DNA of 26,852 bases. Origin: Gemmatimonadota bacterium (GTDB lineage Bacteria; Gemmatimonadota; Gemmatimonadetes; Gemmatimonadales; GWC2-71-9). Each line of letters opens with the position of its first letter. Within the stretch, counting starts at the first letter, position 1. The stretch is from positions 1-26,852 of the forward strand of contig QHTZ01000100.1 of NCBI GenBank assembly GCA_003221005.1, in the 5' to 3' direction. Both the position numbers and the translations under genes were made by a program. Below, piece by piece: positions 3,827 through 19,129 of this stretch. The notes beneath the pieces were generated by a model. The model saw only the letters and a list, made by a program, of their open reading frames with translations. It searched no databases and was not told the origin of the DNA.

Positions 3827-3920
3827 GCACCAATTCGAGGCGGGCCGATGGCCGTCCTTTCCAGCGCACGGCACCTGGGCAAGTCGTGCGTTTCACGCCG
3901 CGTTCGCCGGAGGTGGAGGG

Positions 3921-5246
3921 CTGAGCACCCTGACGCCGTCCGCCCCTGGTATGGACATCGAGGACGTCGTGCGCCGGATCCTCTTCGCTTACTGGCCGCT
4001 CATCGTCCTGTTGGTCGGCATCGGCATCGCGGCGCCTGGCGCCTACCACCTGAATGACGAAACGACCTATACGGCATCTGTGCGCTTCGTCATCGACGCG
4101 CCCGACCCCCAGGCGGTCAACGAGTCGACCGCCGTCGCCGACACCGCGCGGTCGATCGTTACGAGCCCGAGCCACGTCGCCGTCGCGCTCACGACGGCCG
4201 GCGTCACCAAGGACCCGGTGAGGTTCGCGAGCCGCAACATCGAGCTCCAGCCGCTGGGTTCGTCCGGCGTCCTCGTGCTCAAGGTCAAGGACACCAACCC
4301 GAGGGCCGCCGCCGCGATCGCCAACCTGCTCGCCGCCGACGCGATCGCGACCAGGATCGAGATCAGCCGGTCGCAGGCGCAGTCCATGGTGGCCGCGCTC
4401 ACCGCGCAGATCTCGGACCTCGACGCACGCATCGCCGCGCTCGACGCGCAGACAGCCAACTTTCGCGCCATCCCGGTCGACGAGCTGAACGGCCTGTACG
4501 CCGAGCGGGCGACCCTGGCCCAGGAGAGGCTCACGCTCGAGTCCGAGCGGCTGCGGATGAGCTCATCCCTGGCGCTGCGACCCCAGGGCGGCGTCGTCGA
4601 TGCGGCGGACGCGCCCACGGTGCCCGACGCCTCGAGAGCGCCGGTGGACATGGCGCTGGGAGGCCTCGGTGGGCTGGTTCTCGGAGTCCTGGTCGCTGCC
4701 CTACTCGCGACCTTCCGGCCGCGGATCAGCGGCAAGCGCAGCCTGCAGGCGGCCCTCTCGGCTCCGGTCCTCGGAGACGCGAGCGAGTCGGAAGCCGTCG
4801 GTGGGGCCAAGCTGACGACGAAGATCCAGCTCGCCGCCAAGCGCGCCGGCGTGACCCGGCTGCAGCTTGCGCCCCTGGGCCGCGGCGAACAGTCGGACGC
4901 GGTGACCAGGCTGCTGGCCGAGCGCATGTCGCTCGACACGGGTCTCGCCGAGACCACGGCCCCCGGCCACGGTCAGGCGAAGAAGGGTAACGACAAGCCC
5001 CTCGTCGTGAAGCGGCTCGATCTCTCGTTCCCGAGCAGGAACGGCGACTTCGCCCATACCGGTCTGCTGCTGGTCGTGCCCAATACGCTCGACAAGAAGG
5101 CTCTGGCCAGCGGCGCTGACCTCGTTGAGCTAACTGGGTGGCCGGTGGCCGGCATTGTGACTTACGAGGAAGACCAGGGCGACCGTTCGGCGTGGAAGGC
5201 GTCGGTTGCATATGTCTCGCGGAGGCTGCCGTGGCGCTCGCGATAG
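3921..5246 (+). CDS. Polysaccharide co-polymerase / chain-length determinant (Wzz/Wzc-like) with a degenerate C-terminal kinase domain
   Basis: N-terminal MDIEDVVRRILFAYWPLIVLL TM, YTASVRFVI, AAAIANLLA, coiled coil, VVDAADAP, second TM, then ALSAPVLG. Start is CTG 3921 (GGAGG at 3909-3913) or ATG 3951. Confidence 0.85.
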   Translation: MSTLTPSAPGMDIEDVVRRILFAYWPLIVLLVGIGIAAPGAYHLNDETTYTASVRFVIDAPDPQAVNESTAVADTARSIVTSPSHVAVALTTAGVTKDPVRFASRNIELQPLGSSGVLVLKVKDTNPRAAAAIANLLAADAIATRIEISRSQAQSMVAALTAQISDLDARIAALDAQTANFRAIPVDELNGLYAERATLAQERLTLESERLRMSSSLALRPQGGVVDAADAPTVPDASRAPVDMALGGLGGLVLGVLVAALLATFRPRISGKRSLQAALSAPVLGDASESEAVGGAKLTTKIQLAAKRAGVTRLQLAPLGRGEQSDAVTRLLAERMSLDTGLAETTAPGHGQAKKGNDKPLVVKRLDLSFPSRNGDFAHTGLLLVVPNTLDKKALASGADLVELTGWPVAGIVTYEEDQGDRSAWKASVAYVSRRLPWRSR

Positions 5247-6433
5247 AGACCGAGCAGCCCATCCCGTTCGCGCGCACTGTGATCACGGCGAGGGCGCGCC
5301 AGGCAGCCTCGCGTGTCATGGCTTCGGGCTGGGTGACGACGGGCCCAGAGGTGGTCGCCTTCGAGAAGGACTTTGCGCAGTGGGTCGGCGCGCAGCATGC
5401 GGTCGGGGTGGCCTCATGCACCGCCGCGATCGAGATTTCGCTACGCGCGCTGGAGCTGGCGCCGGGTTCACGCGTGCTCACGTCGACGATCACCTTCTGC
5501 GGCGCGATCCACGCGATCATCCACGCGGGGCACATTCCGGTTCTGGCGGACGTCGATCCGGTGACGCTGATGCCGAATGCTGACACCATCGCCGCCGCGC
5601 TCGGGCGAGGGGTCGATGCGATGGTCGTGACGCACTACGGCGGTCATGGCGCACCGGTGATGGAGCTGGCTGCGGCTGCTCGACTGCCGCTCTCGCGAGT
5701 GGTGGAGGACGCCGCGCATGCGCTGGGTACGACGATTGGCGCGAGGCGGGTCGGCAGCATCTCCGGCGCGACGTGCTTCAGCTTCTACGCGACCAAGAAC
5801 CTGCCAATAGGTGAGGGTGGAATGATCACGACAGACGACGCGAGGATTGCGTCGCTGTCGAGAACGCTGCGGATCCACGGCATGAGCGGCGACGCGTGGA
5901 AGCGCTACATGCCGGGCGCGAGCTGGCGCTACGACGTGACCGAAGACGGGATCAAGGCCAACATGACCGACGTCCAGGCGGCGATCGGGCGCGTTCACCT
6001 CAAGTCCCTCGCCTCGTGGCAGCGGCGCCGAGAAGAGCTCGCCGCCCACTACGACACCGGCCTGTCGTTCGTCCGGGGCATCGTCCCTCCACCGCATCCC
6101 GCAGAGGGAAGGCATGCATGGCACCTCTACGTGATCAAGGTCAAGCCGGAGTTCGGCGTCACGCGGGACAAGCTGATCTCCGCGCTGACGGCGCAGGGGA
6201 TCCACTGCTCGGTGCACTTCATCCCGAACCACCTGCAGCCCTACTTCCGCAGGTTCATCGCTCGTGGTTCCGACTTCTCCGCTGCCGACGCTGCGTTCAG
6301 GGAAATCGTTTCGCTGCCGTTCTATCACTCGCTCACGACGAGGGAGATTGACCGCGTCTGCGCGGCGATCGCCGAGATCGGAGCGTTCAGTCGTGTCACG
6401 ACCACGACGCCGACCCCGGCATTCAGGTGGTGA
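5231..6433 (+). CDS. DegT/DnrJ/EryC1/StrS PLP-dependent sugar aminotransferase
   Basis: SGWVTTGPEVVAFE, SCTAA, VVEDAAHA, FSFYATKNL (PLP lysine), GEGGM, AWHLY, SLP. GTG at 5231 follows GGAGG at 5221-5225. Confidence 0.95.
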   Translation: MALAIETEQPIPFARTVITARARQAASRVMASGWVTTGPEVVAFEKDFAQWVGAQHAVGVASCTAAIEISLRALELAPGSRVLTSTITFCGAIHAIIHAGHIPVLADVDPVTLMPNADTIAAALGRGVDAMVVTHYGGHGAPVMELAAAARLPLSRVVEDAAHALGTTIGARRVGSISGATCFSFYATKNLPIGEGGMITTDDARIASLSRTLRIHGMSGDAWKRYMPGASWRYDVTEDGIKANMTDVQAAIGRVHLKSLASWQRRREELAAHYDTGLSFVRGIVPPPHPAEGRHAWHLYVIKVKPEFGVTRDKLISALTAQGIHCSVHFIPNHLQPYFRRFIARGSDFSAADAAFREIVSLPFYHSLTTREIDRVCAAIAEIGAFSRVTTTTPTPAFRW

Positions 6434-6434
6434 G

Positions 6435-8015
6435 TTGAGCACGCTCCAGGAGATTGGAGACGCGGCGGTCGTCAATGGCGATGCCAACGGCCACGGCACC
6501 AACGGCCACGCCAAAACGAACGGCAACGGTCGCAACGGCAATGGCGCAAACGGCCACGCCGGGGCGCTCACGTGCCTGGTGGTCGGTGCCGGCAAGGCAG
6601 GGCGCATCATCGCGCGCGACCTGAGAAACCTGCCCGAGTTCGGGCTCCGGCCGATCGGGTACCTCGACGACGACCCAAAGCGCCAAATGGTGGCCGGCCT
6701 GCCCGTCCTCGGCACGCTCGGCGACCTGGCGGAAGTCTGCCGGCAGCGGCACGTCGAGGTGGTCGTCATCGCCATCCCCTCGCTGCCGTCGACCGCGATC
6801 CGGCGCCTTGCCGAGAGCGCGGCCGAGGCGGGCACGCATGTCCGCTACCTGCCTTCGTTCGTCGCCGCGCTCGAGCGTGAGACCCTGATCCACGAGCTGC
6901 GCCACATGCGCATCGCGAGCTTGCTCGGCAGGCAGGAGATGCATGTGGTCCGCACCGACTCGCAAAGCGTCGTGGCGGGCAAGCGCGTGCTGGTGACCGG
7001 CGCCGGCGGCTCGATCGGCAGCGAGCTGTGCCGGCAGATCAAGGGTTTTGGCCCGTCGGCGCTCTATCTGCTCGACCACGACGAGTCGAACCTGCATCGC
7101 GTGCAGATGCAGTTGGAAGGGAGGGCGCTGCTCGACACCGACGACTTGATCATCGCCGACATCCGCGATGCCGGCCGGATCCACCAGATCTTCAGAGCGG
7201 TGCGGCCCGAGGTTGTGTTCCATGCCGCCGCGCACAAGCACCTGCCGCTGCTCGAGAGGCATCCCGCCGAAGGCGTGAAGTCCAACGTCCTTGGCACCAA
7301 GACGCTCGTCGGTGCAGCGCTCGAGGTTGGGGTGGAGAGGTTCATCCTCATCTCGACCGACAAGGCGGCCGACCCGGTCTCGATTCTCGGCGCCACCAAG
7401 CGGCTGGCCGAGCTGATCGTGCAGTCGCGGGCCGGCGGCACGACGCGTTTCGCCTCCGTGCGGTTCGGCAATGTTCTCGGCAGCCGGGGCTCGTTCCTCA
7501 CGGTGCTGTCAGAGCAGATCGAGAAGGGCGAAGAGATCACAGTCACGCACCCCGAGGTCATGCGGTTCTTCATGACCGTCGAAGAGGCGGTTGGCCTCGT
7601 CATCGAGGCGGCCAGCATGGCAGAGGCGGGGGAGACCTTCGTTCTCGACATGGGCGAGCCCGTGCGCATCGTCGACCTGGTTCATAGCTACGCGAGCCAG
7701 ATGCACGTCGACGCGCGCAAGCTGCAGATCCGTTTCACCGGCTTGCGACAGGGAGAGAAGCTGAGCGAAGACCTCTTCAGCAAATCGGAAGAGCGCCGGC
7801 CGACCGCGCATCCGAAGATCAGCGCGGTCTTTCCCGGTGCGCTGCCACCCCATTTCGCCGACCGGCTCGACGAACTCATCTTCGCAGCCTCCGCTAACAG
7901 GCCGCCGCACGAGATCAAGCGTTACCTCGCACGCGCGCTCCCGGACTACAGCCCTCCGGGCGACGCGCCGGTCGAAAACGGCAGCCTTCAGGGCGTCTAT
8001 CCGGACGACTTCTGA
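6435..8015 (+). CDS. Nucleoside-diphosphate-sugar 4,6-dehydratase (PglF/CapD/WbpM-like) lacking the N-terminal membrane domain
   Basis: VVGAGKAG..GYLDDDP domain, then VLVTGAGGSIGSELCRQI, FHAAAHKHLP, ISTDKA, GATKR, VRFGNVLGSRGS, RFFMTVEEA, LDMGEPV, GLRQGEKLSE. TTG at 6435 lies one base after the upstream TGA. Confidence 0.93.
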   Translation: MSTLQEIGDAAVVNGDANGHGTNGHAKTNGNGRNGNGANGHAGALTCLVVGAGKAGRIIARDLRNLPEFGLRPIGYLDDDPKRQMVAGLPVLGTLGDLAEVCRQRHVEVVVIAIPSLPSTAIRRLAESAAEAGTHVRYLPSFVAALERETLIHELRHMRIASLLGRQEMHVVRTDSQSVVAGKRVLVTGAGGSIGSELCRQIKGFGPSALYLLDHDESNLHRVQMQLEGRALLDTDDLIIADIRDAGRIHQIFRAVRPEVVFHAAAHKHLPLLERHPAEGVKSNVLGTKTLVGAALEVGVERFILISTDKAADPVSILGATKRLAELIVQSRAGGTTRFASVRFGNVLGSRGSFLTVLSEQIEKGEEITVTHPEVMRFFMTVEEAVGLVIEAASMAEAGETFVLDMGEPVRIVDLVHSYASQMHVDARKLQIRFTGLRQGEKLSEDLFSKSEERRPTAHPKISAVFPGALPPHFADRLDELIFAASANRPPHEIKRYLARALPDYSPPGDAPVENGSLQGVYPDDF

Positions 8016-8017
8016 TC

Positions 8018-9208
8018 ATGTCGCCGGCGGGCGTGCCGATCAACGTTGCCGTCGTGGTCACCCGCTTCATTGCCGGAGCCGGTGGAGTCGCGCTGCGCGG
8101 CGCGCTGGCGCTGGAGTCTGACCGGTTCCACACCACGGTGATAGCGGCCGAAGGCGGCAACCTGCTCGAGGACGCCGCTACGGGTGGCCTGTCGGTCATC
8201 CCCCTCCGCCACATGCGGCCGGACATCGCTCCGCGCGCCGACCTCGCGGTGCTGCGCGAAGTCTCCGAGCACCTCGAGGCCGGACGTTACGACGTGGTGC
8301 ACACGCACAGCGCAAAGGCGGGCATGGTCGGCCGCGTCGCGGCGCGCTGGAACCGGGTGCCGCTAATCGTGCACACGTTTCACGGATTCCCGTTTCACGC
8401 TTACCAGTCGCGCGCGCGCCGGTCGTCGTACATCGCGATCGAGCGGTGGCTTGGCCGCATCACCGATCGCTTCCTGGCCGTTGGTGCGGCAGTGGCGGCG
8501 GACGCGGTGCGGCTCGGCATTGCGCCGCCTGAGCGCATCCGGACGATCGGAAGCGCGGTCGATCCGGTCGAGCCTCGGACCGCTTCATCACGTGCCGAGG
8601 CGCGACGCCTTCTGGGTGTTCCACAGGACGCAAGGGTTGCAGGCACCGTCGGTCGCCTGGACTTCCAGAAGGCGCCGCTGGATACGGTCAAGGCATTCGC
8701 GCTTCTCGACCGCGACGTCCATTTCGTTTGGGTCGGAGGCGGTCCGATGCTCGGCGAGGTCCGTCGTGAGGTCGAGGGCCGCGGGCTCCAGGAGCGCTTC
8801 CACCTGATCGGAGAGCGGCGCGACGTGGCGCAGCTGCTGCCCGGCATCGACGTCTTTGCGATGGCCAGTCTCTACGAGGGACTGCCCTGCTCGGTCGTCG
8901 AGGCGATGATGTGTGGCGTCCCGGTGGTCGCGACCGCGGTCAACGCGGTACCGGAGGTCGTTGTGCCGGGTCGCACCGGGCTGCTCGTCGCGCCGCGAAG
9001 GCCGCGCGACCTCGCCGCGGCCATCGGCCATCTGCTCGACAACCCGGACCGCGCCGGCGCGCTTGCGGCCGCCGCCCGCTCGAACCTCGGCGACCGCTTC
9101 GACGTCGATGTGCTGGCGCACGATCTGCGGGAGACCTACCTGTCGGCGCTCGGCAGCCGCGACCGCAGTGCTGCGGCGGCGACCACGCAGCTGGCGCAGA
9201 CGGCATGA
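8018..9208 (+). CDS. Glycosyltransferase family 4 (GT-B)
   Basis: DVVHTHSAKAG, HTFHG, VGRLDFQK, SLYEGLPCSVVEAM (E-x7-E), PVVAT, TGLLV. Confidence 0.95.
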   Translation: MSPAGVPINVAVVVTRFIAGAGGVALRGALALESDRFHTTVIAAEGGNLLEDAATGGLSVIPLRHMRPDIAPRADLAVLREVSEHLEAGRYDVVHTHSAKAGMVGRVAARWNRVPLIVHTFHGFPFHAYQSRARRSSYIAIERWLGRITDRFLAVGAAVAADAVRLGIAPPERIRTIGSAVDPVEPRTASSRAEARRLLGVPQDARVAGTVGRLDFQKAPLDTVKAFALLDRDVHFVWVGGGPMLGEVRREVEGRGLQERFHLIGERRDVAQLLPGIDVFAMASLYEGLPCSVVEAMMCGVPVVATAVNAVPEVVVPGRTGLLVAPRRPRDLAAAIGHLLDNPDRAGALAAAARSNLGDRFDVDVLAHDLRETYLSALGSRDRSAAAATTQLAQTA

Positions 9209-10179
9209 GAAGCCTCCGGCTCGAGACCGCAGGCGAGGTGGTCGCCATCGAGACGGGTCTCCCGTGGACAGGCCGCCTGCTCGAGGAGGCGGCCGATGGC
9301 ACGCTTGGGTCGAGCTCGACCCAGCCGACCATTTCGATCAAAGTCGAGGCGGAGCGCGCGCCGTTCCCGACCGCCGGCTTCTCGGTGCTCACGCGAGGCG
9401 CGTGGAGCCGGGCGGGGGACGTCGTCGTCGAAGACGTTTGCGGAACCGGTCTCGACCTTCGCCTGGTCGTTGGGACCGACATCCCGAAGTTCACGTTTCG
9501 CTGGCGGCCGCGTCCGCGGCGCCGGCTCGAGGGTGCGCTCCTGCCGTCGCGCTTCCACCTTCTCGTCCGTGCCGCCCTCGTGCAGTACCCCGTGATCTGG
9601 TGGGCGTCGGTCCAGGGGAGGGCGCCCCTACACGCGGTCGCTTGCACCTTCGGCGAGGCGGTCGCGCTGCTTGCCGGGCCGGGAGGGGTCGGCAAGTCGA
9701 CGCTGCTCAAGGCCGAGTTGGAGGACGGAGGGTCGGCGACCAGCGACAACCTCTGCGTCGGCGACGGCCGCGCCGTCTGGGGTCTGGTCGAACCGATGAG
9801 GATCGAAGGGGCCGGTGGCCGGAAGATGCCGCATGGCCGAGCTGAGACGCCGCTCACAGGGCGGGTTTCCCAGCTGGTGCCGGACCGCATCATCGTCGTG
9901 CGACGCGGCGAGGGTGACGAGGCCCGGCTGCGGCCGTGCGACGCGGAGACCGCGTCGAGGTCTTTGGTCAGCGGCACTTACATGGCAGGGGAGCTGCGCC
10001 GTTTCTGGGGGTTCGCGGCAACGCTTGCCGCCGGCACCGGCGTGGGCCCCTCCCATCCGCCCGTCGTCGAAATCGCTCGCAGCTTCGCGACGCGCGTGCC
10101 CTGCTACGAGCTCGACCTCGCACGACGGCCTGGATCGCGTCTTGCGCAAATCGTCAAACCGATGGAGGCAACTGCATGA
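9205..10179 (+). CDS. HPr kinase/phosphorylase-like P-loop protein
   Basis: ATGA overlap with the GT4 stop. LHAVAC...VALLAGPGGVGKST (Walker A at 9676-9702) followed by SDN matches the LHA / GxxGxGKST / DD layout of HprK-related kinases. Confidence 0.75.
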   Translation: MRSLRLETAGEVVAIETGLPWTGRLLEEAADGTLGSSSTQPTISIKVEAERAPFPTAGFSVLTRGAWSRAGDVVVEDVCGTGLDLRLVVGTDIPKFTFRWRPRPRRRLEGALLPSRFHLLVRAALVQYPVIWWASVQGRAPLHAVACTFGEAVALLAGPGGVGKSTLLKAELEDGGSATSDNLCVGDGRAVWGLVEPMRIEGAGGRKMPHGRAETPLTGRVSQLVPDRIIVVRRGEGDEARLRPCDAETASRSLVSGTYMAGELRRFWGFAATLAAGTGVGPSHPPVVEIARSFATRVPCYELDLARRPGSRLAQIVKPMEATA

Positions 10180-11750
10180 ACCTGAAAGTCATCGCGGCCG
10201 GTCCCGAGAGTCCGGCCCATCTAGAGGATCCGAATCGATTGGCGGAGCTCGACTCGCCGGCTACGGGCGCGACATCGAATGGTCACGATGCCGCGCACGA
10301 CGAGGACGACCACCACCACGGCGTCGATCGCAACGTCCACCGGGCGCAGTTTCAGGACGCCCGGATTTTCCAGAGCAAGGATTACCGCGCGAAGGAAGAG
10401 ACGCTGGCGGTGCTGGCAGAGGGAATTCGCGACACGGACCTGGTGACGGCTCCGGTCGTGCTCCCGGACTTCTATCACAAGGCACTTCTGGAGATGCCGT
10501 CGAGCATCGCGGTCGCTACGCGAAACTCAATCCGGCCGACGCTCACCAGCGCCGCTGTGAACTGCGGGATGGCGCTGATCACCTTCGATGCCGAGCGCCC
10601 GAGCCGCGAGCGCATCGCCGACTTCTACGAGTCGGTTCGCAAGACCTACCCGTTTCCGCCGACCCTGCGCCCCGACATCACGTACGCCGAAGTCCTGGAG
10701 AGCGCAACGCGCGGCGCCGAGTTTGCGGTCGGCCGGTGGGGGCTCGACCCGAACGACCTGCTGGCGATCGAGGAGGGCGGCAAGCTCGACCTCGAGTCCT
10801 TCGGCGGCAAGGCCCGGCTCAAGGAGGAGGTGCCCTGGCTGATGTTGCAGCTGAGCCGCCTCCGGTTTGGGACGATCGGGCCGAGCACCCACTTCGTGGA
10901 GCTGCAGGAGGTCGAGGAGGTCCTCGATGACGACGTGGCTGCGAAGCTGGGCCTGCACAAGGGCCAGATCACGCTGCAGTTCCACGCGGGCGGGGGAACA
11001 CTCACAGGCGCGATCGGGGCGCTATACGGTCCGCGGCGGGCGGGGAGCCAGCTGCTGAAGACGATCATGAGCGCGCAGCGGCCGCTGCACCATCTTGCCG
11101 GCGCGCGGTCTTTTCGAGAGCTGCGCGACCGCTACACGCTGTACTTCGGCAACGACTGCCCGCCCGTGCCGCGAGACAGCCCAGAGGGCGAGCGCCTGAT
11201 GGTGTCGAACGCCGCGGCGATGAACTACGGATTCGCGTTCAGGCTCAAGACGTACTCGGACTTGCGCGAGCTCGCCGCAAAGTATTTCGGCGCCGCCAGC
11301 CACCTCGTCGTGGACTCACCTCACAACTCGATCTACGAAGAGGAGATCGACGGCGAGACCGCCATCGTGCACCGGCACAACACGTCGCGCGCCTATCCGG
11401 CCTCGCGAATGACCGGACATCCGATCTTCAGCCAGACGGGGCAGCCGGTGCTCGTTCCTGGCACCAACCGGACGTGCTCATACCTCTGCGTGGGCGCGGA
11501 AGGATCCAGGGAGGGGCTCTACTCGGCCTGTCACGGGACCGGCAGCATCATCGACGACTTCGTGGCCCGCGGACTGTCGCATGAAGACCCGGCCGGCCAC
11601 ACGACGCTTCGGTTCAGCTACAAGGAGCCGGAGCCAAAGGTCGTAAAGCACCTGGACAATCGCGGCGTCGACGAGGGCATCGCGATCCTCGCCGGCAACA
11701 ACCTGGTGAAGCCCGTGGTCCGGCTGCGGCCGTTTGCGGTCCTCAACTAA
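10176..11750 (+). CDS. Divergent RtcB-family protein (524 aa)
   Basis: ATGA overlap and GGAGG RBS. Colinear RtcB motifs: VLPD, VNCGM, FGTIGPSTHFVELQ, FHAGG, AAMNYGFAFR, VVDSPHN, VHRH, GQPVLVPGT..SY, SACHGTG, PVVRLRP. Confidence 0.88.
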   Translation: MNLKVIAAGPESPAHLEDPNRLAELDSPATGATSNGHDAAHDEDDHHHGVDRNVHRAQFQDARIFQSKDYRAKEETLAVLAEGIRDTDLVTAPVVLPDFYHKALLEMPSSIAVATRNSIRPTLTSAAVNCGMALITFDAERPSRERIADFYESVRKTYPFPPTLRPDITYAEVLESATRGAEFAVGRWGLDPNDLLAIEEGGKLDLESFGGKARLKEEVPWLMLQLSRLRFGTIGPSTHFVELQEVEEVLDDDVAAKLGLHKGQITLQFHAGGGTLTGAIGALYGPRRAGSQLLKTIMSAQRPLHHLAGARSFRELRDRYTLYFGNDCPPVPRDSPEGERLMVSNAAAMNYGFAFRLKTYSDLRELAAKYFGAASHLVVDSPHNSIYEEEIDGETAIVHRHNTSRAYPASRMTGHPIFSQTGQPVLVPGTNRTCSYLCVGAEGSREGLYSACHGTGSIIDDFVARGLSHEDPAGHTTLRFSYKEPEPKVVKHLDNRGVDEGIAILAGNNLVKPVVRLRPFAVLN

Positions 11751-12172
11751 TGCCAGGTTGGTGGCGGGTCGCCGTACCGTCCGAGGCGACCGAGCTCGAG
11801 ATCCCTGGCAATGGTGGAAGCCGGCGCGACGCAGTGGACCGCCTGCGCTCGCTGGATCGGGGTGCGCTCGTCGCTCTGCGCGACGCGCGGCCCGCGTCCT
11901 GGTTGCGGACGCGCTCCTTCATCGCCAGCGCCGGCCTCCGCCTGGAGAAGGAGTTCGTCGCGATCCCGGGCTTCGACAGCCCGGGATTTCTGGTCGAAGC
12001 CAACCGCCTCGCCTTCCGGCACTTCTTCACGCGCGTCCTTTATGTGCCGACGGGTGACTGGCGCGGTGTGGTGGGCGCCGGCCTGGCCGCTCGGCTGGCG
12101 GCGGGCTGGCTCGGCTGGCGGATCGCTGCCGCGCTCGCACCGGCCCGGATCGTGATCGCGAGGAAGGTCTGA
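11750..12172 (+). CDS. Hypothetical protein (140 aa)
   Basis: TAATG overlap with the RtcB-like stop; its own stop abuts the next ATG, so it fills the operon gap exactly. No catalytic motif recognised. Confidence 0.75.
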   Translation: MPGWWRVAVPSEATELEIPGNGGSRRDAVDRLRSLDRGALVALRDARPASWLRTRSFIASAGLRLEKEFVAIPGFDSPGFLVEANRLAFRHFFTRVLYVPTGDWRGVVGAGLAARLAAGWLGWRIAAALAPARIVIARKV

Positions 12173-13207
12173 ATGGCTGTGGCCGGCGCTCCCGCCCCGG
12201 CGCTCCAGAGCGTGAGCGACCTTCTGGCCGATCGCGGCCGCGGCGTCGTCGTGTCCGGCATTTCGAAGGATCCGAACGGCAAGGTGACACTTGTCCTGGT
12301 CGGCGACGACGGCCAACCGGCGGTCGTCGTGAAGATCGCGCCGACTGCGAGTGCGGAGGCCGCGCTCGAGGCCGAGGCGGCGGTCCTCGAGGGGCTCGAG
12401 CGGACGCGCCTGGGCGTGCTCGCGCCGTCCGTGCCCCAGGTCCTTGGCTGGGCGCAGCACGGGGGTCGGTTGGCGCTGGTCCTGACGGGGCTGCCCGGTC
12501 GCAGCATGCTCACCGGCTACCACACCTGGCGTCACACCGCACGGCCGGCGACGGTGGCCGGCGACTTCAACGCGGTCAGCGCGTGGCTGGCAGCGTTTCA
12601 GTCGGCGACCTCCGGAGGTGCGATCAGCCTCTCGGACCAGACGATCGCCGCCACGCTGCAGGGCCGTTTCGCGCACCTCCCGCTGCTCTCACGGGCGCTT
12701 GAGCTGCTCGATGCGGTGCAGGAGAGGCTGCGCGTTTTCGAGGTTCCCGCCTGTACGGTCCACGGCGATCTATGGCCGGGAAACATCCTCGAGGCACACG
12801 GCGTCGTCAGCGGCGTCGTCGACTGGGAAGCCGGCCGGCTCCTGGCCTCTCCCACAAGCGACCGGGTGCGCTACGCGCTGACTTACGCGCTGTATCTCGA
12901 CAAGCACACGGCCGCGGGCTCTGGGGTCGCCGGTCACCGCGGGCTGCGGGCCGACCGGTGGGGCGCCGGATTCCGCCATCTGCTCGCCGGCTCGACGTGG
13001 TTCGGGGATGCCGTGGCGGGGTTCATCGCCTCGGCCCTGGAGCGGCTTGACGCCGACCCGCACCTGTGGCGGGTGGTGTTGCTCGAGGGCCTGGCGGGGA
13101 TCGCGGCCACGGCCGACGATCTGGCTTTTGCGACGCATCACCTAGAGGTTTTCGCCGAATTGGCGCCGGCAGTCATAGCTGCCGGAAAGGGGAGATCGGA
13201 ACCATGA
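12173..13207 (+). CDS. Aminoglycoside-phosphotransferase/choline-kinase-like (ELK fold) phosphotransferase
   Basis: VVVKIA lysine, helix-C EAEAAVL, Brenner motif HGDLWPGN (starting 12761), metal-binding VVDWE. Confidence 0.9.
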   Translation: MAVAGAPAPALQSVSDLLADRGRGVVVSGISKDPNGKVTLVLVGDDGQPAVVVKIAPTASAEAALEAEAAVLEGLERTRLGVLAPSVPQVLGWAQHGGRLALVLTGLPGRSMLTGYHTWRHTARPATVAGDFNAVSAWLAAFQSATSGGAISLSDQTIAATLQGRFAHLPLLSRALELLDAVQERLRVFEVPACTVHGDLWPGNILEAHGVVSGVVDWEAGRLLASPTSDRVRYALTYALYLDKHTAAGSGVAGHRGLRADRWGAGFRHLLAGSTWFGDAVAGFIASALERLDADPHLWRVVLLEGLAGIAATADDLAFATHHLEVFAELAPAVIAAGKGRSEP

Positions 13208-13386
13208 ACACGAGCCGGCAGGGCTCGACCGAGCTGCCATTCAACGTCCGCCAGAAGCTCCTGCGCAGGTCGCGTCGCCGTAGGACCCTGCTGTACCTCC
13301 GCAACGACACCGTATGGCTCTTCCTACTGATCACCATGGCGATCCTGGTCGCCACCCAGTTGATCGGAGCCTTGGGCCGCGCTTAG
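13204..13386 (+). CDS. Small membrane protein (60 aa): Arg-rich segment followed by one TM helix
   Basis: ATGA overlap with the upstream stop, AAGGGGAG RBS; MNTSRQ..LLRRSRRRRTLL..VWLFLLITMAILVATQLIGAL. Confidence 0.7.
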   Translation: MNTSRQGSTELPFNVRQKLLRRSRRRRTLLYLRNDTVWLFLLITMAILVATQLIGALGRA

Positions 13387-13395
13387 GGGGATGGA

Positions 13396-14724
13396 TTGAG
13401 CACCGCCGGGGCGGCGATCGGCGGGTACTTGGGGGCGCCGCGGTCGCCGTTCGACACCGCCCGGATTCCGCAGTGGCGTGCCGCGGCGCTTGCGCTCGCC
13501 GCGCTCGCGATCGGCACGCTGCCATTCCTTCGGCCGGCGGGCCCGGGGAACACATCGCCCACCGACGTCGCCATGGTCGCCACGATTGCGGCGACCGCGG
13601 TCCTCGTGTATGTCTCGCGGGAACGGCTGCGCGCTCCGTTCGCCATCTCCTCCGCGTTGATGGTGATCGCAGGTTGCGTGTCGGGGGTGGTCGGGCCTGC
13701 GCTGCGGCAGGCGCTGGTCTCGGTCGGCTACCCGCAGGACAGCCTCATCGCGGTCATCCAGGACCTCTACCTGCTGTTCTGGTGCCTGACGCTGGTAAAC
13801 CTCGTCCGCTCGGCCTCCGACCTGCGCGTGGTCCTCACCGCCTGGATTTATGGCGCGGCGTTCTGGGCCGCCCTGCTGGTGACAGGAGCCGTGCTGGGGA
13901 TCCGCGCCCTGTCGGGCATCGAGGTTGGCAACGGTGGTCGCGCCGAGGGCACCTTCGGCGACCCCAACATGGCGGCGAACTTCTTCGCGCTGTCGATCTT
14001 CGTTGTGTGGGCTTCGGCGTCACCGGGGAACCGATGGTTGCGAGCAGCAATCGTGGTCTTGCTGCTGAGCGCGATGGTGATGACGGGCTCCAACGGAGCG
14101 TTCCTCAATCTCGGTATCGGAGTTGCGTTCGTAATCCTCGCCACCATCCGCAAGCGCCTTGGCGGCATCGCCCTGGTGATCGCGCTGTGCTTCGGGCTCA
14201 TGACCGCCGTTGCGGTCGTCAGTTACGTCGACTTCGGAGCGATCCAGGAAGCTGCGCGAACTAGCGGCCAACCGATATTGCGCGACTGGATTGGCCGCAG
14301 CGATTCAAGCGCATACCAGCGGATTGTGATCTTGCAGGAGGCCGGGGAGATCCTCCAGAAGGCCGGGCCGCTCGGCACTGGGCCAAACGCCACCAAGCCG
14401 CTGCTCACCGACACGCTGGCCCCGTACGCCCATCAAGCGCACGACGACTACGTGGCACTGGTTGTCGAGCGTGGGGTCCTCGGTGGAGTCGCGCTTTTCG
14501 TGCTCATCTGCGCGATCTGGTTCAGGTCGTCGCAGGCGCTGGGGGGCCGCATGCGCGACGCGTTCCAACGCGTCGTCCCGAGGCGCGAACCGCTGATCGG
14601 GGCCCTGCTAGGGCTGGCGGCCGCGGCCTCCTACTACGAGGTGATCCATTTCCGGCACGTGTGGACTCTGCTGGCGGTCCTCGCGATCCTGCAGATCAGG
14701 GGTAGGGAGCGGGTGGCCGCATGA
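13396..14724 (+). CDS. Wzy polymerase / O-antigen ligase family membrane protein
   Basis: Many TM helices; RAEGTFGDPN, TGSNGA, PLGTGP, AHDDYVALVVERGVLG (Wzy_C signature). TTG start after GGGGGATGGA. Confidence 0.88.
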   Translation: MSTAGAAIGGYLGAPRSPFDTARIPQWRAAALALAALAIGTLPFLRPAGPGNTSPTDVAMVATIAATAVLVYVSRERLRAPFAISSALMVIAGCVSGVVGPALRQALVSVGYPQDSLIAVIQDLYLLFWCLTLVNLVRSASDLRVVLTAWIYGAAFWAALLVTGAVLGIRALSGIEVGNGGRAEGTFGDPNMAANFFALSIFVVWASASPGNRWLRAAIVVLLLSAMVMTGSNGAFLNLGIGVAFVILATIRKRLGGIALVIALCFGLMTAVAVVSYVDFGAIQEAARTSGQPILRDWIGRSDSSAYQRIVILQEAGEILQKAGPLGTGPNATKPLLTDTLAPYAHQAHDDYVALVVERGVLGGVALFVLICAIWFRSSQALGGRMRDAFQRVVPRREPLIGALLGLAAAASYYEVIHFRHVWTLLAVLAILQIRGRERVAA

Positions 14725-16730
14725 GGTCGCTGCGCAAGCTCAGCCGCAGCGCATTGAGCGGAAACCTCGCCGCCCTCGGTGGCGCCCTGGTGGCCCTGTC
14801 GATCGCGACCCTGGTCGTGGCCCGGGCCGGCGGGCCGGCGGCCGTCGGCGACTACGCGCTGCTCCGCATCATGCCGTGGCTGCTGGCTGTGATCGTTTCC
14901 GGCGGCCTGGCTTCAGCGTCCGCGTACTTTCTGGCCGGGCCGACTCGGGATGACCCCCAGGTCCGGCCGACGCTCATCGCGATGGCGGTCGCGGCTGCGG
15001 TCGCTTCACTCCTCATCTGGGTCGTGGCGTCACCCGCCATCAGGGCCGTCTTCTTCCACGACCTCACCACGGCGCTCGTCGCCTGGGCCGGCCTGAAGGC
15101 GACAAGCCGGCTCTTCGTGATCACCGCAAAGGCCGCTTCGCAAGGCACCGGCGACCTGCCCGGCAGCAACTGGCTCATCTTCCTCGAGGAGCTCATGTTC
15201 CTGCCCGCCTATGCCGTCGCCTTGATGTTCGGGCTGCGCGGAGGTGCCGGGATCATCGCCGCCCTCATCCTGTCCGACGTCGCCACCGGCATGGTGGGCT
15301 GGAGGCGGCTGGTTCGGCGCGGCTACCTGGCCGGTTCGTCAAAGCCGTCGCCGGTGCTGGCGCGTCGCATCTACGCGTTCGGCATGCGCGGCCAGGTCGG
15401 CAGCATTATGACGCTGGTCAACCTCCGGCTCGACTTCATGATCATCGCGCTCCTGGCGGGACCGGTGGTCCTCGGTGTGTACGCGGTCGCCTCGAAATTC
15501 GCGGAGCTGCTCCGCCTCCTGCCGACTGCCTTCAACTGGGTGTTCTATCCGTCCTTTGCGAAGCAGGCTCCAGTGGAGGCGTGGAGGCGCGCCGCCTGGC
15601 TCATGCCCCGCGCTGCCGCATGCACCGCGTTCGCTGCGATCCCCCTGGCCTCGGTCGCTGGACCCGTGCTGCCTCTGCTGTACGGCTCCGACTTTGCGGG
15701 CGCGGTGCTGCCGAGCCAGCTGCTCCTGGTGGGGCTCACGGTCGAGGGCGCGGCCGGGGTCGTCACCGCATATCTCTTCGGCCGCGGCCGCCCTGGTTTG
15801 AACTCGCTCGCCACGGCGGGCGGAGTGGTCGTCACTGTGGCGCTGGACCTGCTGCTCATTCCAAGGCTGAGCTTGCTGGGAGGCGCCGTGGCTTCCAGCG
15901 TTGCCTACCTGGCCACGACGTCGCTGTTGGTCACCTGCTTCATAGCTGTTCGGCCGTCGGCGCCGGCGCCGGCCGCGATTGACGCCGGCCCCGCAGCCCC
16001 GACCGGGACTTTGCGGCGGCTCATCGACCTCGCGGTCGCCGGCATTGCGCTGGTCATCGCGGGACCGTTGCTGCTGGTCGTGTGGCTCGGCTCGAGGATT
16101 TCGACCGGCGCGTCGGGCATATATCGGCAGGAGCGGGTGGGGGAGGGCGGTGTGCCGTTCACGATGCTCAAGATCCGGAGCATGCGTCCTGGGGGCGCTG
16201 GACCTCAGGTCACCGTCGAAAGCGATCCCCGTGTCACTCGGTTCGGTCGGCTGCTGCGGGCGACGAGCATCGACGAGCTGCCACAGCTCATCAACATCAT
16301 CCGGGGTGACATGACGCTGGTCGGGGCCAGGCCGGAGACGGTGGATCTCGCCCGGCGGTACGCTCCGGAGCTGCACACGGTGTTCCGACACCGCCCCGGC
16401 CTCACGGGTCCGGCGCAACTCTTCTTCCGCTGGAGTGACGCCCTCGACAGGGCAGACGACGTGGAGTTGGCCTACCTGCAGGACCAGGTGCCGCTCCGCG
16501 TGGCCATGGACCTCGACTACCTCGAGAGACCGACCGTGGGACGGACGCTTGGCCTGATCGCAACCACCGCAGCCAACGTCCTCCATCTGGGACGCCGAGT
16601 CAATGTCCTACCGCCGTCGGCACGCCCAGCCTGTCGCCCGGCGGCTGGCGGCATGGACGACCTCAGTGCAGGGGAAGCGAGTTCTCCAGTTCCAGCTGAC
16701 GGACTTCGTCGGGCCGCGACTCGAGGCTGA
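14721..16730 (+). CDS. Fusion of a Wzx-type flippase and a priming phosphoglycosyl transferase (Bac_transf)
   Basis: N-terminal ~410 aa MOP flippase (GPAAVGDYALL, NLRLDFMII..GVYAVASKFAE, LYGSDFAGA, LLIPRLSLLGGAVASSVAY). After a Pro/Ala linker: RRLIDL..YRQERVG..FTMLKIRSM..DPRVTRFGRLLRATSIDELPQL..GDMTLVGARPE..RPGLTGPAQ. Confidence 0.9.
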   Translation: MRSLRKLSRSALSGNLAALGGALVALSIATLVVARAGGPAAVGDYALLRIMPWLLAVIVSGGLASASAYFLAGPTRDDPQVRPTLIAMAVAAAVASLLIWVVASPAIRAVFFHDLTTALVAWAGLKATSRLFVITAKAASQGTGDLPGSNWLIFLEELMFLPAYAVALMFGLRGGAGIIAALILSDVATGMVGWRRLVRRGYLAGSSKPSPVLARRIYAFGMRGQVGSIMTLVNLRLDFMIIALLAGPVVLGVYAVASKFAELLRLLPTAFNWVFYPSFAKQAPVEAWRRAAWLMPRAAACTAFAAIPLASVAGPVLPLLYGSDFAGAVLPSQLLLVGLTVEGAAGVVTAYLFGRGRPGLNSLATAGGVVVTVALDLLLIPRLSLLGGAVASSVAYLATTSLLVTCFIAVRPSAPAPAAIDAGPAAPTGTLRRLIDLAVAGIALVIAGPLLLVVWLGSRISTGASGIYRQERVGEGGVPFTMLKIRSMRPGGAGPQVTVESDPRVTRFGRLLRATSIDELPQLINIIRGDMTLVGARPETVDLARRYAPELHTVFRHRPGLTGPAQLFFRWSDALDRADDVELAYLQDQVPLRVAMDLDYLERPTVGRTLGLIATTAANVLHLGRRVNVLPPSARPACRPAAGGMDDLSAGEASSPVPADGLRRAATRG

Positions 16731-17505
16731 GGCTGCCGTACTCCCAGGAGAAGACGAGGTATCCGCTGAGCGCGGACTTCCTCCAGTGTTGGAACTCCTC
16801 GTGCAGCTCGCTTGGGGTGGGTAGGCGGTAGTAGTCGTCCTGGAAGGCCTGGATGATGGCCCAGTAGTCGGTGATGCCCGCGCCCTGAATCGCGGCCACC
16901 GCCTCGTCGATCCGGCTGAAGTCGCATTGCGCGTCCACCCGGCGGCACGGATACACGTCAAAGCCGAGGATGTCCGTCGTCCCCTTCCACTGGGCGTATG
17001 GGAAGGCCACTCCCGCGTCGGAAGCCGAGATCACGGTGAAGGTGGGATGGACGGGATCGATCTGGTGCACCAACGCCGTTCTCGCCTTGAACATCGCGGG
17101 CGCTTTGGGACATTTGCTTGCGAGCGGCTCGTCGCCCAGGAAGTAGGCCAGTACCGCGGGGCTCGAGGCGATGGGAACCACGTGGGAGCGAATCCAGGCG
17201 TCGTCGTGCTCCCAGGCGCACGACGCGTTCCGCCATGCGCCGAGCCACACGAAGGCCTTGACGCCGTGCGCCGTCAGCTCGCCGAGATCGTCCGGGTAAG
17301 GATTTGCGTCGAAGGTGTTGAAGCCGGCGTTGGCTTGCAGTGTGAAGCCGTTGCTGCTGGTGTCGTGGCCATACACGCCACGGATCGCGCTCGCGTCGCC
17401 GGGCCAAGGCGCGGGTGTCGTCGTGGCCGAGCTCCCTCCGAACGTGCATGAGGAGACCGCGGTGAGGAGGGCGACGGCGAGTAGCGAAAGACGAACGCGG
17501 TTCAG
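16663..17505 (-). CDS. Lipoprotein with a putative TIM-barrel glycoside-hydrolase-like domain
   Basis: Probable CTG start at 17505 with GGAGG 8 nt upstream gives signal peptide MNRVRLSLLAVALLTAVSS-C. Motifs AYFLGDEP, DILGFDVYP, WAIIQAF, GYLVFSW. Confidence 0.75.
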   Translation of the reverse strand: MNRVRLSLLAVALLTAVSSCTFGGSSATTTPAPWPGDASAIRGVYGHDTSSNGFTLQANAGFNTFDANPYPDDLGELTAHGVKAFVWLGAWRNASCAWEHDDAWIRSHVVPIASSPAVLAYFLGDEPLASKCPKAPAMFKARTALVHQIDPVHPTFTVISASDAGVAFPYAQWKGTTDILGFDVYPCRRVDAQCDFSRIDEAVAAIQGAGITDYWAIIQAFQDDYYRLPTPSELHEEFQHWRKSALSGYLVFSWEYGSLSLESRPDEVRQLELENSLPLH

Positions 17506-17506
17506 C

Positions 17507-19129
17507 TCAGAAACCTCCGAGGTGTGGATCCTCGCGATTTCCGTCGGCGTGGGCGGCGGCGAGGACGCGACGGCTGGGCAACGGGTCGCACCGGGCATTT
17601 AAGCAGGTGCCCGTCTTCAGGTCGAACTCGAGATTGTGGCCGAGGCAGCGCAGGACGTCGTTCTCGAGCATGACGGCACCGATCGCGAGGTCTTCGCCCG
17701 CGTGGGGGCAATAGCGGCCGATCTTGTAGACCCCACCCGGGGCCGTGACTTCGAGCGTCTCGCCGCTGTCGCGGCCGCGCTCGTGGCGCTCGATCGCCGA
17801 CAGCGCCTCCGGCTCGGCGTGCTTCAGGAGGCCGATGAGGTAGTCGTTGTAGATGTCGGGGTCGCGCCAGCATCCGATGCGCAGGGACAGGAACAGGTCC
17901 TCCCACGCGATCTCACCGAAGATCACGGGGGCGAGCCAGCGTGAATCGACCTTGAACCGGTACTGGACCTCCGACGCCGAGCCGCCGAGGTCGACCTTGA
18001 CACCTTGCGGCCGGAAGTCGACGTCCCAGCGACCCTCAACCTGGCCCGTGATCTCGAAGCGAACCGTCATGTCGATCCGTTCTCGGAAATATGGGCTCAT
18101 CTCTCCAAGCCTGTGGAAATGCTCGACGAATGCGTCAGCAAGCTCGGGTCCTGGCTCCGCATACCCCCTCTCGGTCTCGATGATCGATCGCTGCCGGGCC
18201 TTCGCGTACCACTCGATGTATTCGGCCATATGGTCGTACGAGAAATCACGCCAGTGCGGGTCGCGTTCCAGGTGCCGGCTCAGCATGTCGTAGCGATCCC
18301 CGGGCATCCAGTTGGCGACCTGGACGTGGGGGGCCCTGGACTCGAGATAGGCGGCCGCCTGGGACTGGTTGGGAAAGATGCCGTTGGGGTCGAGGAGCCA
18401 TCGGTTGAATTGTTGGAGCTCGGGGTCGAGGAAGCACATCGGTCCCGCGAAAGGCAATGCAACCTCCGGCGCCGCCAGCTTGACCAGGCGGCTGACGAGC
18501 TTGAACTTGCCCTCTCGCTTGGCTGCGCTGATGCGCAGCATCTCCTCTTCGCCGTACTCGTAACGGATGGGGTGCCACGATGCGCCCGACATCTGCACCG
18601 CCATCAGGTCGATCTTGCCACCGCACTCGATCGCCGCCCGACGCGCCTGGCCGATGGTGAGCCTGGCGTCGTTGCAATGCAGGAATGAGGCCCCGCCGGC
18701 ATACAACAGGACAGCCGAGTCGTGGCACATCGGGGACTGCTCAGGGATGAAGCAAACCCAGTCCCCGCGCTCGTTGAGCTGGAACTTCTGCCACGCGTCG
18801 AGCTCGACGACGTTACGGGCGCCGAGGCGGGCGAGGCGATCCCGCAGATTCGGTGAGGGATAGCGATTGATCAGCAGCTTCGCGTTCAGGGGCAGGTGCG
18901 AGAGCACGTCCGCATCCATGTGGTCGAGGTGCTCGTGTGACAGTGTCGCGTAGTCGACGTCGAGGATTTGCGACTGGTCCAGGTGGCCGTTGCTCGGGAA
19001 CTGGTGCCACGAGCCCTGGAAGGCGCCGCGCTCCGAAAGCCAGCAGTCCATGATCATGCGGAGGTCGACGCCGTCGACCCGCATGCCGGCATGGCCGAGA
19101 AATGTCAGCTGAAGTGAATCCGCAGGCAC
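17507..19129 (-). CDS. NamH/CMP-Neu5Ac-hydroxylase-like protein: metallo-beta-lactamase fold plus C-terminal Rieske [2Fe-2S] domain
   Basis: GHAG, SWHQFPSN, SHEHLDH, DSA..NDAR, SGASWHP, PFAGPMCFLDPEL, IFPNQ, FLSLR..WR..YNDYL, Rieske CPH..CLGH. The motif order follows mycobacterial NamH (Rv3818) as I recall it. Confidence 0.85.
   Translation of the reverse strand: MPADSLQLTFLGHAGMRVDGVDLRMIMDCWLSERGAFQGSWHQFPSNGHLDQSQILDVDYATLSHEHLDHMDADVLSHLPLNAKLLINRYPSPNLRDRLARLGARNVVELDAWQKFQLNERGDWVCFIPEQSPMCHDSAVLLYAGGASFLHCNDARLTIGQARRAAIECGGKIDLMAVQMSGASWHPIRYEYGEEEMLRISAAKREGKFKLVSRLVKLAAPEVALPFAGPMCFLDPELQQFNRWLLDPNGIFPNQSQAAAYLESRAPHVQVANWMPGDRYDMLSRHLERDPHWRDFSYDHMAEYIEWYAKARQRSIIETERGYAEPGPELADAFVEHFHRLGEMSPYFRERIDMTVRFEITGQVEGRWDVDFRPQGVKVDLGGSASEVQYRFKVDSRWLAPVIFGEIAWEDLFLSLRIGCWRDPDIYNDYLIGLLKHAEPEALSAIERHERGRDSGETLEVTAPGGVYKIGRYCPHAGEDLAIGAVMLENDVLRCLGHNLEFDLKTGTCLNARCDPLPSRRVLAAAHADGNREDPHLGGF

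Follow-up and report, generated by a model that had tools for sequence, protein, structure and literature searches.

We analysed a 26,852-nucleotide stretch of genomic DNA from a Gemmatimonadota bacterium (contig QHTZ01000100.1 of assembly GCA_003221005.1; hereafter the window), in which an operon of the Wzx/Wzy polysaccharide pathway carries a block of five open reading frames (ORFs) on the + strand between a GT4 glycosyltransferase gene and wzy. The conserved core of the module found here is a pair of genes, one for an HprK-like P-loop protein (P0001) and one for a divergent member of the RtcB family (P0002), with the HprK-like protein as the obligate partner. A role of the module in lipid-linked glycan assembly is strongly supported, and it probably serves an undescribed, phosphate-linking step in the making of cell-surface polysaccharides. 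To our knowledge, the only activity known for RtcB is nucleic-acid ligation, which serves tRNA splicing, the unfolded-protein response, and the repair of RNA and ribosomes. We judge the chances to be about even that P0001 and P0002 form a two-enzyme tailoring module of the Wzx/Wzy pathway with the phosphate chemistry set out below, in which phosphate activation and ligation are predicted by analogy with RtcB.

The HprK-like and RtcB-like genes are coupled within a polysaccharide operon

The window is contig C9 of a draft genome (G000; 2.79 Mb in 141 contigs, 93.9% complete, ~67% G+C). All five ORFs of the block (P0001 to P0005; coordinates in Table 2) are free of stop codons in translation and are closely joined: start and stop codons overlap as ATGA at 9205, 10176 and 13204, the P0002/P0003 junction is TAATG (11748-11752), and between P0003 and P0004 a TGA abuts the next ATG with zero gap (12170-12175). 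An additional ATGA at 14721 couples wzy to the next gene, which encodes Wzx fused to a polyprenyl-phosphate glycosylphosphotransferase (PGT). The tight run of + strand genes extends from ~3786 to 16730, and no terminator-like site was found on this strand between 3350 and 17800. A Wzx/Wzy pathway set is present in one cluster, comprising PGT, Wzx and Wzy plus a weak match to a polysaccharide co-polymerase (PCP) at 3786-5246. ORFs, coordinates and junction types are as reported in the first-pass annotation of this DNA, whose assignment of 10176-11750 as RtcB-like and of 12173-13207 as APH-like is borne out by Pfam (PF01139, E 7e-41, and PF01636, E 1.1e-17, respectively).

The gene pair and its glycan neighbourhood are conserved

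Window proteins were compared by tblastn with 82 related loci, 2 from genomes and the best 80 of at least 553 from metagenomes; these were picked by similarity to the query and are mutually related, and counts from them measure consistency, not statistical independence. For adjacency, 58 loci had enough upstream sequence (900 nt or more), and presence was scored in the 29 'long' loci, which extend 5 kb or more to either side; de-replication at 90% amino acid identity gave 53 clusters (36 for adjacency and 20 for presence). The gene immediately upstream of the RtcB-like one is HprK-like in 49/58 loci (31/36 de-replicated), and an HprK-like gene is present in every long locus (29/29; 20/20 de-replicated), while genes for polysaccharide assembly recur around the pair at the frequencies in Table 1. 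Recurring as it does in 82 related loci, the gene arrangement is far above chance. Further recurrent neighbours related to glycans are beta-helix, PKD and CBM secreted proteins, NAD-dependent epimerases and a formyltransferase.

Table 1. Genes accompanying the HprK-like/RtcB-like pair in long related loci
Gene	Long loci	De-replicated
GT4	27/29	18/20
Wzx/PGT	27/29	18/20
DegT	26/29	17/20
Wzy	24/29	17/20
APH	22/29	15/20
Wzz	22/29	16/20
PS2 dehydratase	21/29	13/20
P0276-like	18/29	13/20
P0003-like	14/29	10/20
MBL-Rieske	13/29	8/20

A protein search with P0002 yielded more than 120 clusters at 56-84% identity, nearly all from soil metagenomes or metagenome-assembled genomes (MAGs) of Dormibacterota and Actinomycetota and most of them labelled 'tRNA-splicing ligase RtcB'; the closest named relative locus (L015) is in a Candidatus Dormibacterota MAG. 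With a profile for the wider divergent family, the gene was detected in 11/401 sampled Actinomycetota genomes, including the starting genome G414 and G798, and 8 of the 9 whose contexts were compared carry HprK-like, APH, GT4, Wzy and Wzx/PGT genes. The first-pass annotation had proposed looking for a distinct RtcB clade co-located with wzy, wzx, PGT and both kinase genes, and a distinct clade in the steady company of wzy, wzx, PGT and glycosyltransferase genes is what the 82 loci and these Actinomycetota contexts reveal.

At a threshold of 1e-60, the module was found in 0/400 other genomes of the window's phylum, 0/40 close relatives and 0/300 genomes of the class of G414; from this rarity in species-representative genomes, we take it to be a sporadic accessory island. 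Orthologues of the HprK-like and RtcB-like proteins share their distribution, both occurring in G000 and neither in the 40 relatives searched, which have just a true HprK and weak paralogues. The other 22 window proteins gave no match in the flanks of 12 canonical rtcB loci, a weak control in which 11 loci span 2-4 kb, and tblastn of P0002 against a plasmid collection returned no close clade relative (6 records, 23-31% identity). Across 15 studies, 20 soil-metagenome runs have contigs with DNA near-identical to 9205-13386; in soils, this organism or island is widespread.

Natural fusions join RtcB to HprK-like, flippase and glycosyltransferase domains

The RtcB-like domain also occurs in natural fusions, which came to light among cluster representatives and through a targeted search. 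P0156 (885 aa), with four independent full-length records in Chloroflexota MAGs, combines an HprK-like and an RtcB domain (hhalign probability 98.75%, E 1.5e-16). In P0193, P0288 and P0289 (~996 aa, Candidatus Eisenbacteria), RtcB is joined to a Wzx/MOP flippase, and P0290 and P0291 consist of GT4, Wzx and RtcB, which in P0291 occupy residues 7-350, 399-805 and 909-1346, with a GT4 domain 36% identical to the GT4 protein of the window. These fusions, evidence beyond the co-location that had been suggested as a test, tie the RtcB-like enzyme functionally to a kinase-like protein and physically to the membrane machinery for lipid-linked repeats. General knowledge of MOP flippases and the cytoplasmic GT4 domain would place the RtcB domain of the Wzx fusions in the cytoplasm; a crude hydropathy count did not fix the number of transmembrane helices in these proteins.

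P0265 (755 aa, a metagenome representative) is a fusion of HprK-like and RtcB domains in a different RtcB branch. Its RtcB domain keeps Arg238, the post-nucleophile arginine and Lys480, and has Gly at Asp95 (numbering of Pyrococcus horikoshii RtcB, Pho, used throughout unless P0002 is specified). The kinase-RtcB partnership thus reaches beyond the glycan-associated clade, perhaps with a nucleic acid as the substrate there, and its recurrence, including in this Arg238-keeping branch, suggests a general 'kinase feeds RtcB' logic.

The RtcB-like protein retains the nucleophile but not the RNA-holding residues

P0002 matches PF01139 almost end to end (141.3 bits, cut-off 27; residues 92-523 on profile positions 14-424 of 426) and P. 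horikoshii RtcB with an E of 8.5e-28 (PDB 1uc2), but falls below the cut-offs of all NCBIfam RtcB equivalogs (PRK09588, 68.3 bits, cut-off 407; TIGR03073, 43.1 bits, cut-off 271.8) and is 28-31% identical to canonical RtcB copies. Residues were mapped by HMMER alignment to 1uc2 together with alignment to the genome's own canonical RtcB, and counted in an alignment of 40 clade members sharing 55-84% identity; the roles of metal ligands, guanine contacts and nucleophile follow passages of PMC9745838. The nucleophile His404, which forms His-GMP, corresponds to His453 in P0002 and is kept in 40/40 sequences, and equally invariant are the M1 ligands Cys98, His234 and His329 (C130, H270 and H383 in P0002), His203 (H239), and the equivalents of Asn330, Ser385 and the guanine-binding Glu206.

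Other positions have changed. Arg238 (Eco Arg189), described in passages of PMC8051266 as clamping the first two phosphodiesters of the 5'-OH strand, is Gly in 40/40; Asn202, which the same passages have holding the attacking hydroxyl, is Thr in 16/40 (the window protein included) and Asn in 24/40. The M2 ligand Asp95 is lost, being Ala in 16/40 and Ser in 24/40, and Lys480, a contact to guanine O6, is Asn in 39/40 of this narrow clade and Lys in most of the wider divergent family. The first of two arginines that follow the nucleophile is replaced by Ser/Thr in 40/40 and the second by Asp in 36/40; both are essential in E. coli RtcB. By comparison, Asp95, Arg238, both post-nucleophile arginines and Lys480 are all present in 11/11 canonical sequences of this genome and its relatives (this set includes L008 from genome G020, without which the conclusions are unchanged). 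The picture that emerges from the sequences is of a putative nucleotide-binding, metal-dependent His-NMP enzyme with its RNA-holding residues replaced.

Relative to canonical RtcB, P0002 has an insertion of ~20 residues after its His270. Its residues 1-60 (10176-10360) form a low-complexity, His/Asp-rich extension shared by the closest relatives only, most clade members beginning near P0002 residue 57-63. The Asp95 and Asn202 positions co-vary in the individually printed rows, Ala going with Thr or Ser with Asn, which suggests two active-site subtypes.

In a FastTree analysis of 93 sequences, sampled as the query's best matches and not from the whole RtcB family (partial rows P0129, P0168, P0216 and P0241 were excluded), all 13 canonical sequences cluster together (support 100) and 74/93 sequences lack both Asp95 and Arg238. 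The query clade groups with the Wzx-fused subclade (support 95), in which Cys98 is replaced by Asp, and the HprK-fused subclade is adjacent. A distant RtcB-like gene from genome G936 (L116:5694-8162, - strand; 30% identical to the query, also with Cys98 changed to Asp) is closest to P0247 and the Wzx-fused subclade, sharing 35% identity with P0193. A gene of the CDP-alcohol phosphatidyltransferase family (PF01066, E 4.2e-10) begins 7 nt after it, and an S-adenosylmethionine (SAM) methyltransferase and a STAND-type NTPase are encoded nearby; here, too, the RtcB branch has a setting of membrane phosphodiester chemistry.

With the M2 ligand lost and Asn202 and Lys480 altered, the RtcB-like domain could have been thought a non-catalytic scaffold or substrate-binding module of a flippase/glycosyltransferase complex. 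We find this very doubtful, as His404, Cys98, His203, His234, His329, Asn330, Glu206 and Ser385 are all invariant (40/40) among proteins at 55-84% identity, and the Asp that takes the place of Cys98 in the Wzx-fused subclade could still bridge two metals.

The genome has a separate canonical RtcB

G000 also encodes a canonical RtcB (contig C50, 570 bits). Its gene (L097:7834-9670, - strand) lies immediately downstream of one for archease (PF01951, E 5.8e-22), and the locus also neighbours an acyltransferase and an M48 peptidase. With a canonical RtcB beside archease, the RNA job is already covered in G000. The expectation that genomes with the module also keep a canonical rtcB thus holds for G000, but not for G414 and G415, two module-bearing genomes of unstated completeness in which just the divergent RtcB was seen; the canonical copy is therefore not a constant companion of the module.

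P0002 could also be viewed as an ordinary RNA ligase or repair paralogue merely located, or co-regulated, within a polysaccharide island. In favour of this are its genuine PF01139 membership, with the His nucleophile, and the Arg238-keeping fusion P0265, which leaves room for the pairing with a kinase to have arisen in a nucleic-acid context. Yet an RNA role is hardly to be expected of a protein whose gene is tied into the operon by start/stop codon overlaps, whose synteny is kept across Dormibacterota and Actinomycetota loci, which has relatives translationally fused to Wzx and GT4, and which has lost Arg238. Moreover, archease, RtcA and RtcR are absent from the window ORFs scanned, as had been noted at first pass, whereas the canonical copy has its archease.

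The partner is a P-loop protein with HprK-like motifs

No Pfam or NCBIfam model matched P0001 above threshold; PF07475 gave no match at E<=1, and none in a genome search at 0.01. Among 45 homologues of P0001, 2 match PF07475 (best E 5.5e-6). The ScmC model TIGR04249 matches P0001 at E 0.06, a profile of its family aligns with PDB chains of HprK at E ~0.08 within the P-loop region alone, and an ESM Atlas model of a P0001-type protein resembles ScmC/HprK-type clusters with TM 0.62-0.72, a lead and not a test. All 45 homologues have an unvarying Walker A motif, GPGGVGKST, and an LHA...SDN pattern like that of HprK, and the invariant residues H143, G161-T166, D181 and N182 align to HprK chains 3tqf and 1jb1. 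The HprK-like label given at first pass is upheld in part, by motif spacing and by four weak lines of evidence (the two PF07475-matching homologues, the family-profile match to HprK chains, the ScmC match and the Atlas leads), although P0001 itself stays below thresholds; its kinase activity is a prediction. A BY-kinase identity was rejected, ParA/MinD-type Pfam models matching just 2/45 homologues at E 0.39. A true HprK is encoded elsewhere in G000 (contig C31, 215 bits).

HPr-kinase homologues phosphorylate hydroxyls other than that of HPr, and the phosphate of pseudomycoidin is afterwards glycosylated, according to the sections of the review PMC8498205 that deal with them, which is a precedent for the mechanism proposed below. 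As an alternative, P0001 might phosphorylate a serine, and P0002 cap or ligate the phosphoserine, in a phosphoglycosylation or regulatory switch on a protein of the assembly machinery or a secreted protein. The precedents are apt, in that serines of proteins or peptides are the targets of characterised HprK relatives and the kinase-made phosphoserine of pseudomycoidin is elaborated to a phosphoglycosyl group (same sections of PMC8498205), but a protein or peptide substrate seems improbable to us here: the 82 loci have no conserved substrate-protein gene, RRE/PqqD-like gene or precursor peptide, the 60-aa ORF P0005 occurs in ~6/82 of them, and the RtcB-like domain is found fused to a flippase and a glycosyltransferase.

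The APH-type kinase is an accessory part of the module

P0004 scores 65.1 bits against PF01636 (cut-off 23.2) and has the catalytic motifs HGDLWPGN (HxDxxxxN) and VDWE. Neither it nor P0003 turns up, even at E<=1, in L033-L040, L045 and L095, and we regard the APH kinase as accessory to the module. Of the kinase-RtcB-kinase cassette originally proposed, it is the HprK-like/RtcB-like pair that proves to be conserved, but not the APH gene, which is missing from 7/29 long loci even at E<=1. P0003 (140 aa) has no Pfam or NCBIfam family and no PDB relative, and a profile of its own family likewise found no significant match. Its gene is always directly upstream of the APH gene and shares one ORF with it in 6/27 loci, from which we read P0003 as an N-terminal accessory domain of the APH kinase; this protein, still without a family, is the one first listed as a 140-aa unknown. 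That it is a split kinase N-lobe was rejected because P0004 already covers APH profile positions 14-195, and a methyltransferase-like lead was dismissed, its Atlas score of 0.79 being below a meaningful level. The 60-aa P0005 does have the one hydrophobic segment attributed to it but is not conserved: tblastn finds relatives just in L015/L021, L017/L018, L022 and L028 (~6/82 loci), which makes its status as a real gene uncertain.

Proposed mechanism

We propose that the module would act in the cytoplasm, on or beside an undecaprenyl-diphosphate (Und-PP)-linked repeat unit, before flipping. Judging from the dehydratase and aminotransferase genes, this unit would contain a 4-amino-4,6-dideoxy-HexNAc, laid down by the PGT, and one sugar added by the GT4 enzyme. 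The P-loop protein would phosphorylate a hydroxyl that either belongs to the Und-PP-linked unit or is to become part of it. The RtcB-like enzyme, self-guanylylated at His453 with GTP and its binuclear metal site, would then move GMP to the phosphomonoester to give X-O-P-P-guanosine, and attack by a second hydroxyl would yield a phosphodiester-type linkage or decoration with release of GMP. An alternative nucleophile in this last step could be the free 4-amino group of the sugar, which is conceivable because the window ORFs scanned include no acetyltransferase for it. An optional second phosphorylating activity may come from the APH-fold kinase together with its 140-aa N-terminal domain. This lipid-linked chemistry would run at the cytoplasmic face, physically coupled to GT4 and Wzx. 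The scheme draws on known RtcB chemistry, the retained residues and the fusions, from which guanylylation, substrate and product are all predicted. It is possible, if somewhat short of an even chance, that the large, undescribed RtcB branch without Asp95 and Arg238 has left RNA metabolism and, with the HprK-like kinase, performs RtcB-type chemistry on lipid-linked glycans to give phosphodiester- or phosphoramidate-linked polysaccharides with no nucleotide-sugar or CDP-alcohol donors. On this broader reading, the MBL-Rieske oxygenase-like protein, often encoded ahead of the pair, may make the hydroxyl for phosphorylation.

Several points weigh against this proposal. It is built on genes, residues, neighbourhoods and fusions, from which polymer structure and enzyme activity are predicted, and the loci compared are related to one another. 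The loss of Asp95 and the change at Asn202 could mean that guanylylation is impaired or altered, and Asn at Lys480 might mean that the nucleotide is not GTP. The placement of P0001 as a distant member of the HprK/ScmC P-loop superfamily is partly backed, by weak sequence scores and Atlas leads; its family has an invariant Asn where the 'DD' motif of HprK has its second Asp, which serves HprK as catalytic base, and the HprK relatives known are protein or peptide kinases, not sugar kinases. Finally, the context of L116 fits a division of labour with RtcB activating only.

Activation only is the main rival to the reading we favour, and is unlikely in our view but to be reckoned with. The RtcB-like enzyme would release a GMP-capped phospho-compound (a GDP-alcohol or GDP-sugar) for use by a separate membrane transferase, so replacing a LicC/TarD-type nucleotidylyltransferase and not the transferase itself; the user would be the PGT, GT4 or, elsewhere, a CDP-alcohol phosphotransferase. 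This would account for the L116 member of the Wzx-fused subclade ending 7 nt before a CDP-alcohol phosphatidyltransferase gene, and with Arg238 and the post-nucleophile arginines the second-substrate site could have gone. It would also suit an operon with kinases and no LicC/LicD, TagF or Stealth homologue; these, like cytidylyltransferase and CDP-alcohol transferase domains, had no Pfam match in the 27 window ORFs scanned. However, the L116 context is seen at one locus, the Wzx and GT4 fusions suggest a lipid-linked intermediate and not synthesis of a soluble donor, and the equivalent of Asn202, going by its role in the passages of PMC8051266 on Pho RtcB, is still Asn in 24/40. We favour the reading in which P0002 would both activate the phosphate and ligate it.

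Surrounding genes

Features of the cluster are listed in Table 2. The Wzz/PCP-like gene may in fact begin with the ATG at 3951. Starts are also uncertain for the aminotransferase, whose ORF overlaps the upstream gene, and for the dehydratase, which matches the PseB model under its cut-off (E 3.5e-52). Wzx and PGT form a single 669-aa polypeptide in the window, and their halves have separate matches in several related loci.

Table 2. Features of the polysaccharide cluster in the window
Feature	Position	Strand	Basis
Wzz/PCP-like chain-length determinant	3786..5246	+	weak NCBIfam TIGR03007 (7e-9) and EpsF; no Pfam match
DegT/PseC-type sugar 4-aminotransferase	5138..6433	+	PF01041, 2.9e-101; PseC and ArnB ~1e-85, under cut-offs
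Membrane-type UDP-HexNAc 4,6-dehydratase (Polysacc_synt_2, PglF/WbpM-like)	6264..8015	+	PF02719, 1.3e-100
GT4 glycosyltransferase	8018..9208	+	PF13692 and PF00534, ~1e-33
HprK/ScmC-like P-loop protein P0001, putative hydroxyl kinase	9205..10179	+	Walker A; weak HprK matches
Divergent RtcB-family protein P0002, putative GTP-dependent phosphomonoester activation/ligation	10176..11750	+	PF01139, 7e-41
140-aa P0003, accessory domain protein of APH-type kinase	11750..12172	+	no family
APH/ePK-fold kinase P0004	12173..13207	+	PF01636, 1.1e-17
Possible 60-aa single-pass membrane peptide P0005	13204..13386	+	one hydrophobic segment
Wzy-type polymerase (O-antigen ligase-like)	13396..14724	+	PF04932 (Wzy_C), 1.2e-12
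Fused Wzx and polyprenyl-phosphate glycosylphosphotransferase	14721..16730	+	Polysacc_synt_3, residues 32-329; Bac_transf, residues 432-621, 3.2e-44
Secreted/lipoprotein-like P0276, unknown family	16663..17598	-	signal-like N-terminus
MBL-fold and Rieske protein P0277	17507..19129	-	Rieske and Lactamase_B matches; HEHLDH motif, C-terminal Rieske

P0276 has no Pfam, NCBIfam or PDB match. It is paralogous to the product of 20729-22597 (+), equally family-less, with tblastn cross-matches in L015 and L016, and in L056-type loci family-less lipoproteins of ~350 aa are encoded directly upstream of the RtcB-like gene. P0276-type secreted or lipoprotein-like proteins may be polymer hydrolases. P0277 finds NAPE-PLD (E 2e-5) and a non-heme diiron monooxygenase (E 7e-5) in the PDB. 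An MBL-Rieske gene accompanies the module also in L054, L060, L065, L066, L071, L073, L078, L082 and L083, and is immediately upstream of the HprK-like gene in several loci; the protein could be an oxygenase creating the hydroxyl to be phosphorylated, or a phosphodiesterase. Regulators flank the cluster, namely a HisKA_3 histidine kinase, a receiver-domain protein and a LuxR-type response regulator (1876-2571, -; 3070-3924, +; 19163-19840, -). Their genes are conserved in L015 and L017, and regulation of the operon by them is possible.

Significance and comparison with known systems

Our literature search, at the level of the titles and abstracts listed, found no RtcB homologue in polysaccharide synthesis, in agreement with the first-pass annotation, and no description of an HprK-like/RtcB pairing. 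The component families are known and the Wzx/Wzy frame is ordinary, unlike the module and its implied chemistry. Whether the module amounts to a categorically new way of building phosphate-linked glycans we would answer with a tentative yes at most, the odds lying slightly to the other side. If it does, the His-GMP mechanism of phosphate activation would extend to glycobiology, and there would be a new way to place phosphate bridges in surface polymers. Such bridges shape charge, antigenicity, and recognition by phages and the immune system. Fusion of RtcB to a flippase and a glycosyltransferase would surprise specialists in RtcB and in bacterial glycans alike, and the system offers testable handles in its two soluble proteins, the diagnostic changes at Asp95 and Arg238, and natural fusions that mark the site of work. 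The name 'tRNA-splicing ligase RtcB' is probably wrong for thousands of database entries from Actinomycetota, Dormibacterota, Chloroflexota and Eisenbacteria of soils.

P0002 shares with canonical RtcB (PH1602, E. coli RtcB and human RTCB) the Pfam family, a full-length match, the His nucleophile and the M1 ligands. It differs in its partner, which for the canonical enzymes is archease, RtcA or RtcR and for P0002 an HprK-like P-loop protein within a glycan operon, and in having relatives fused to Wzx and GT4.

Known routes to phosphodiester-containing glycans are the LicA/LicC/LicD phosphocholine pathway, CDP-glycerol or CDP-ribitol with TagF/TarL, the Stealth hexose-1-phosphate transferases, and capping by the WbdD kinase-methyltransferase. 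An APH/ePK-fold kinase in a polysaccharide cluster and an expected phosphate-containing polymer are common to these and the window. In contrast to their soluble CDP- or UDP-donors, the route proposed here would transfer GMP in situ from an enzyme histidine.

With HPr kinase/phosphorylase and its homologues in lasso-peptide systems (paeninodin, pseudomycoidin), P0001 shares the P-loop, the preceding His, the following (S/A)D and HprK-like spacing. Unlike in those systems, no HPr, RRE or precursor peptide is found near P0001, and unlike HPr kinase proper it is below the PF07475 threshold. The logic of pseudomycoidin, as outlined in the relevant sections of PMC8498205, resembles that of the window pair, in that a kinase installs a phosphate and a second enzyme would turn it into a phosphodiester-linked group; this second enzyme is a nucleotidyltransferase in pseudomycoidin and RtcB-like in the window.

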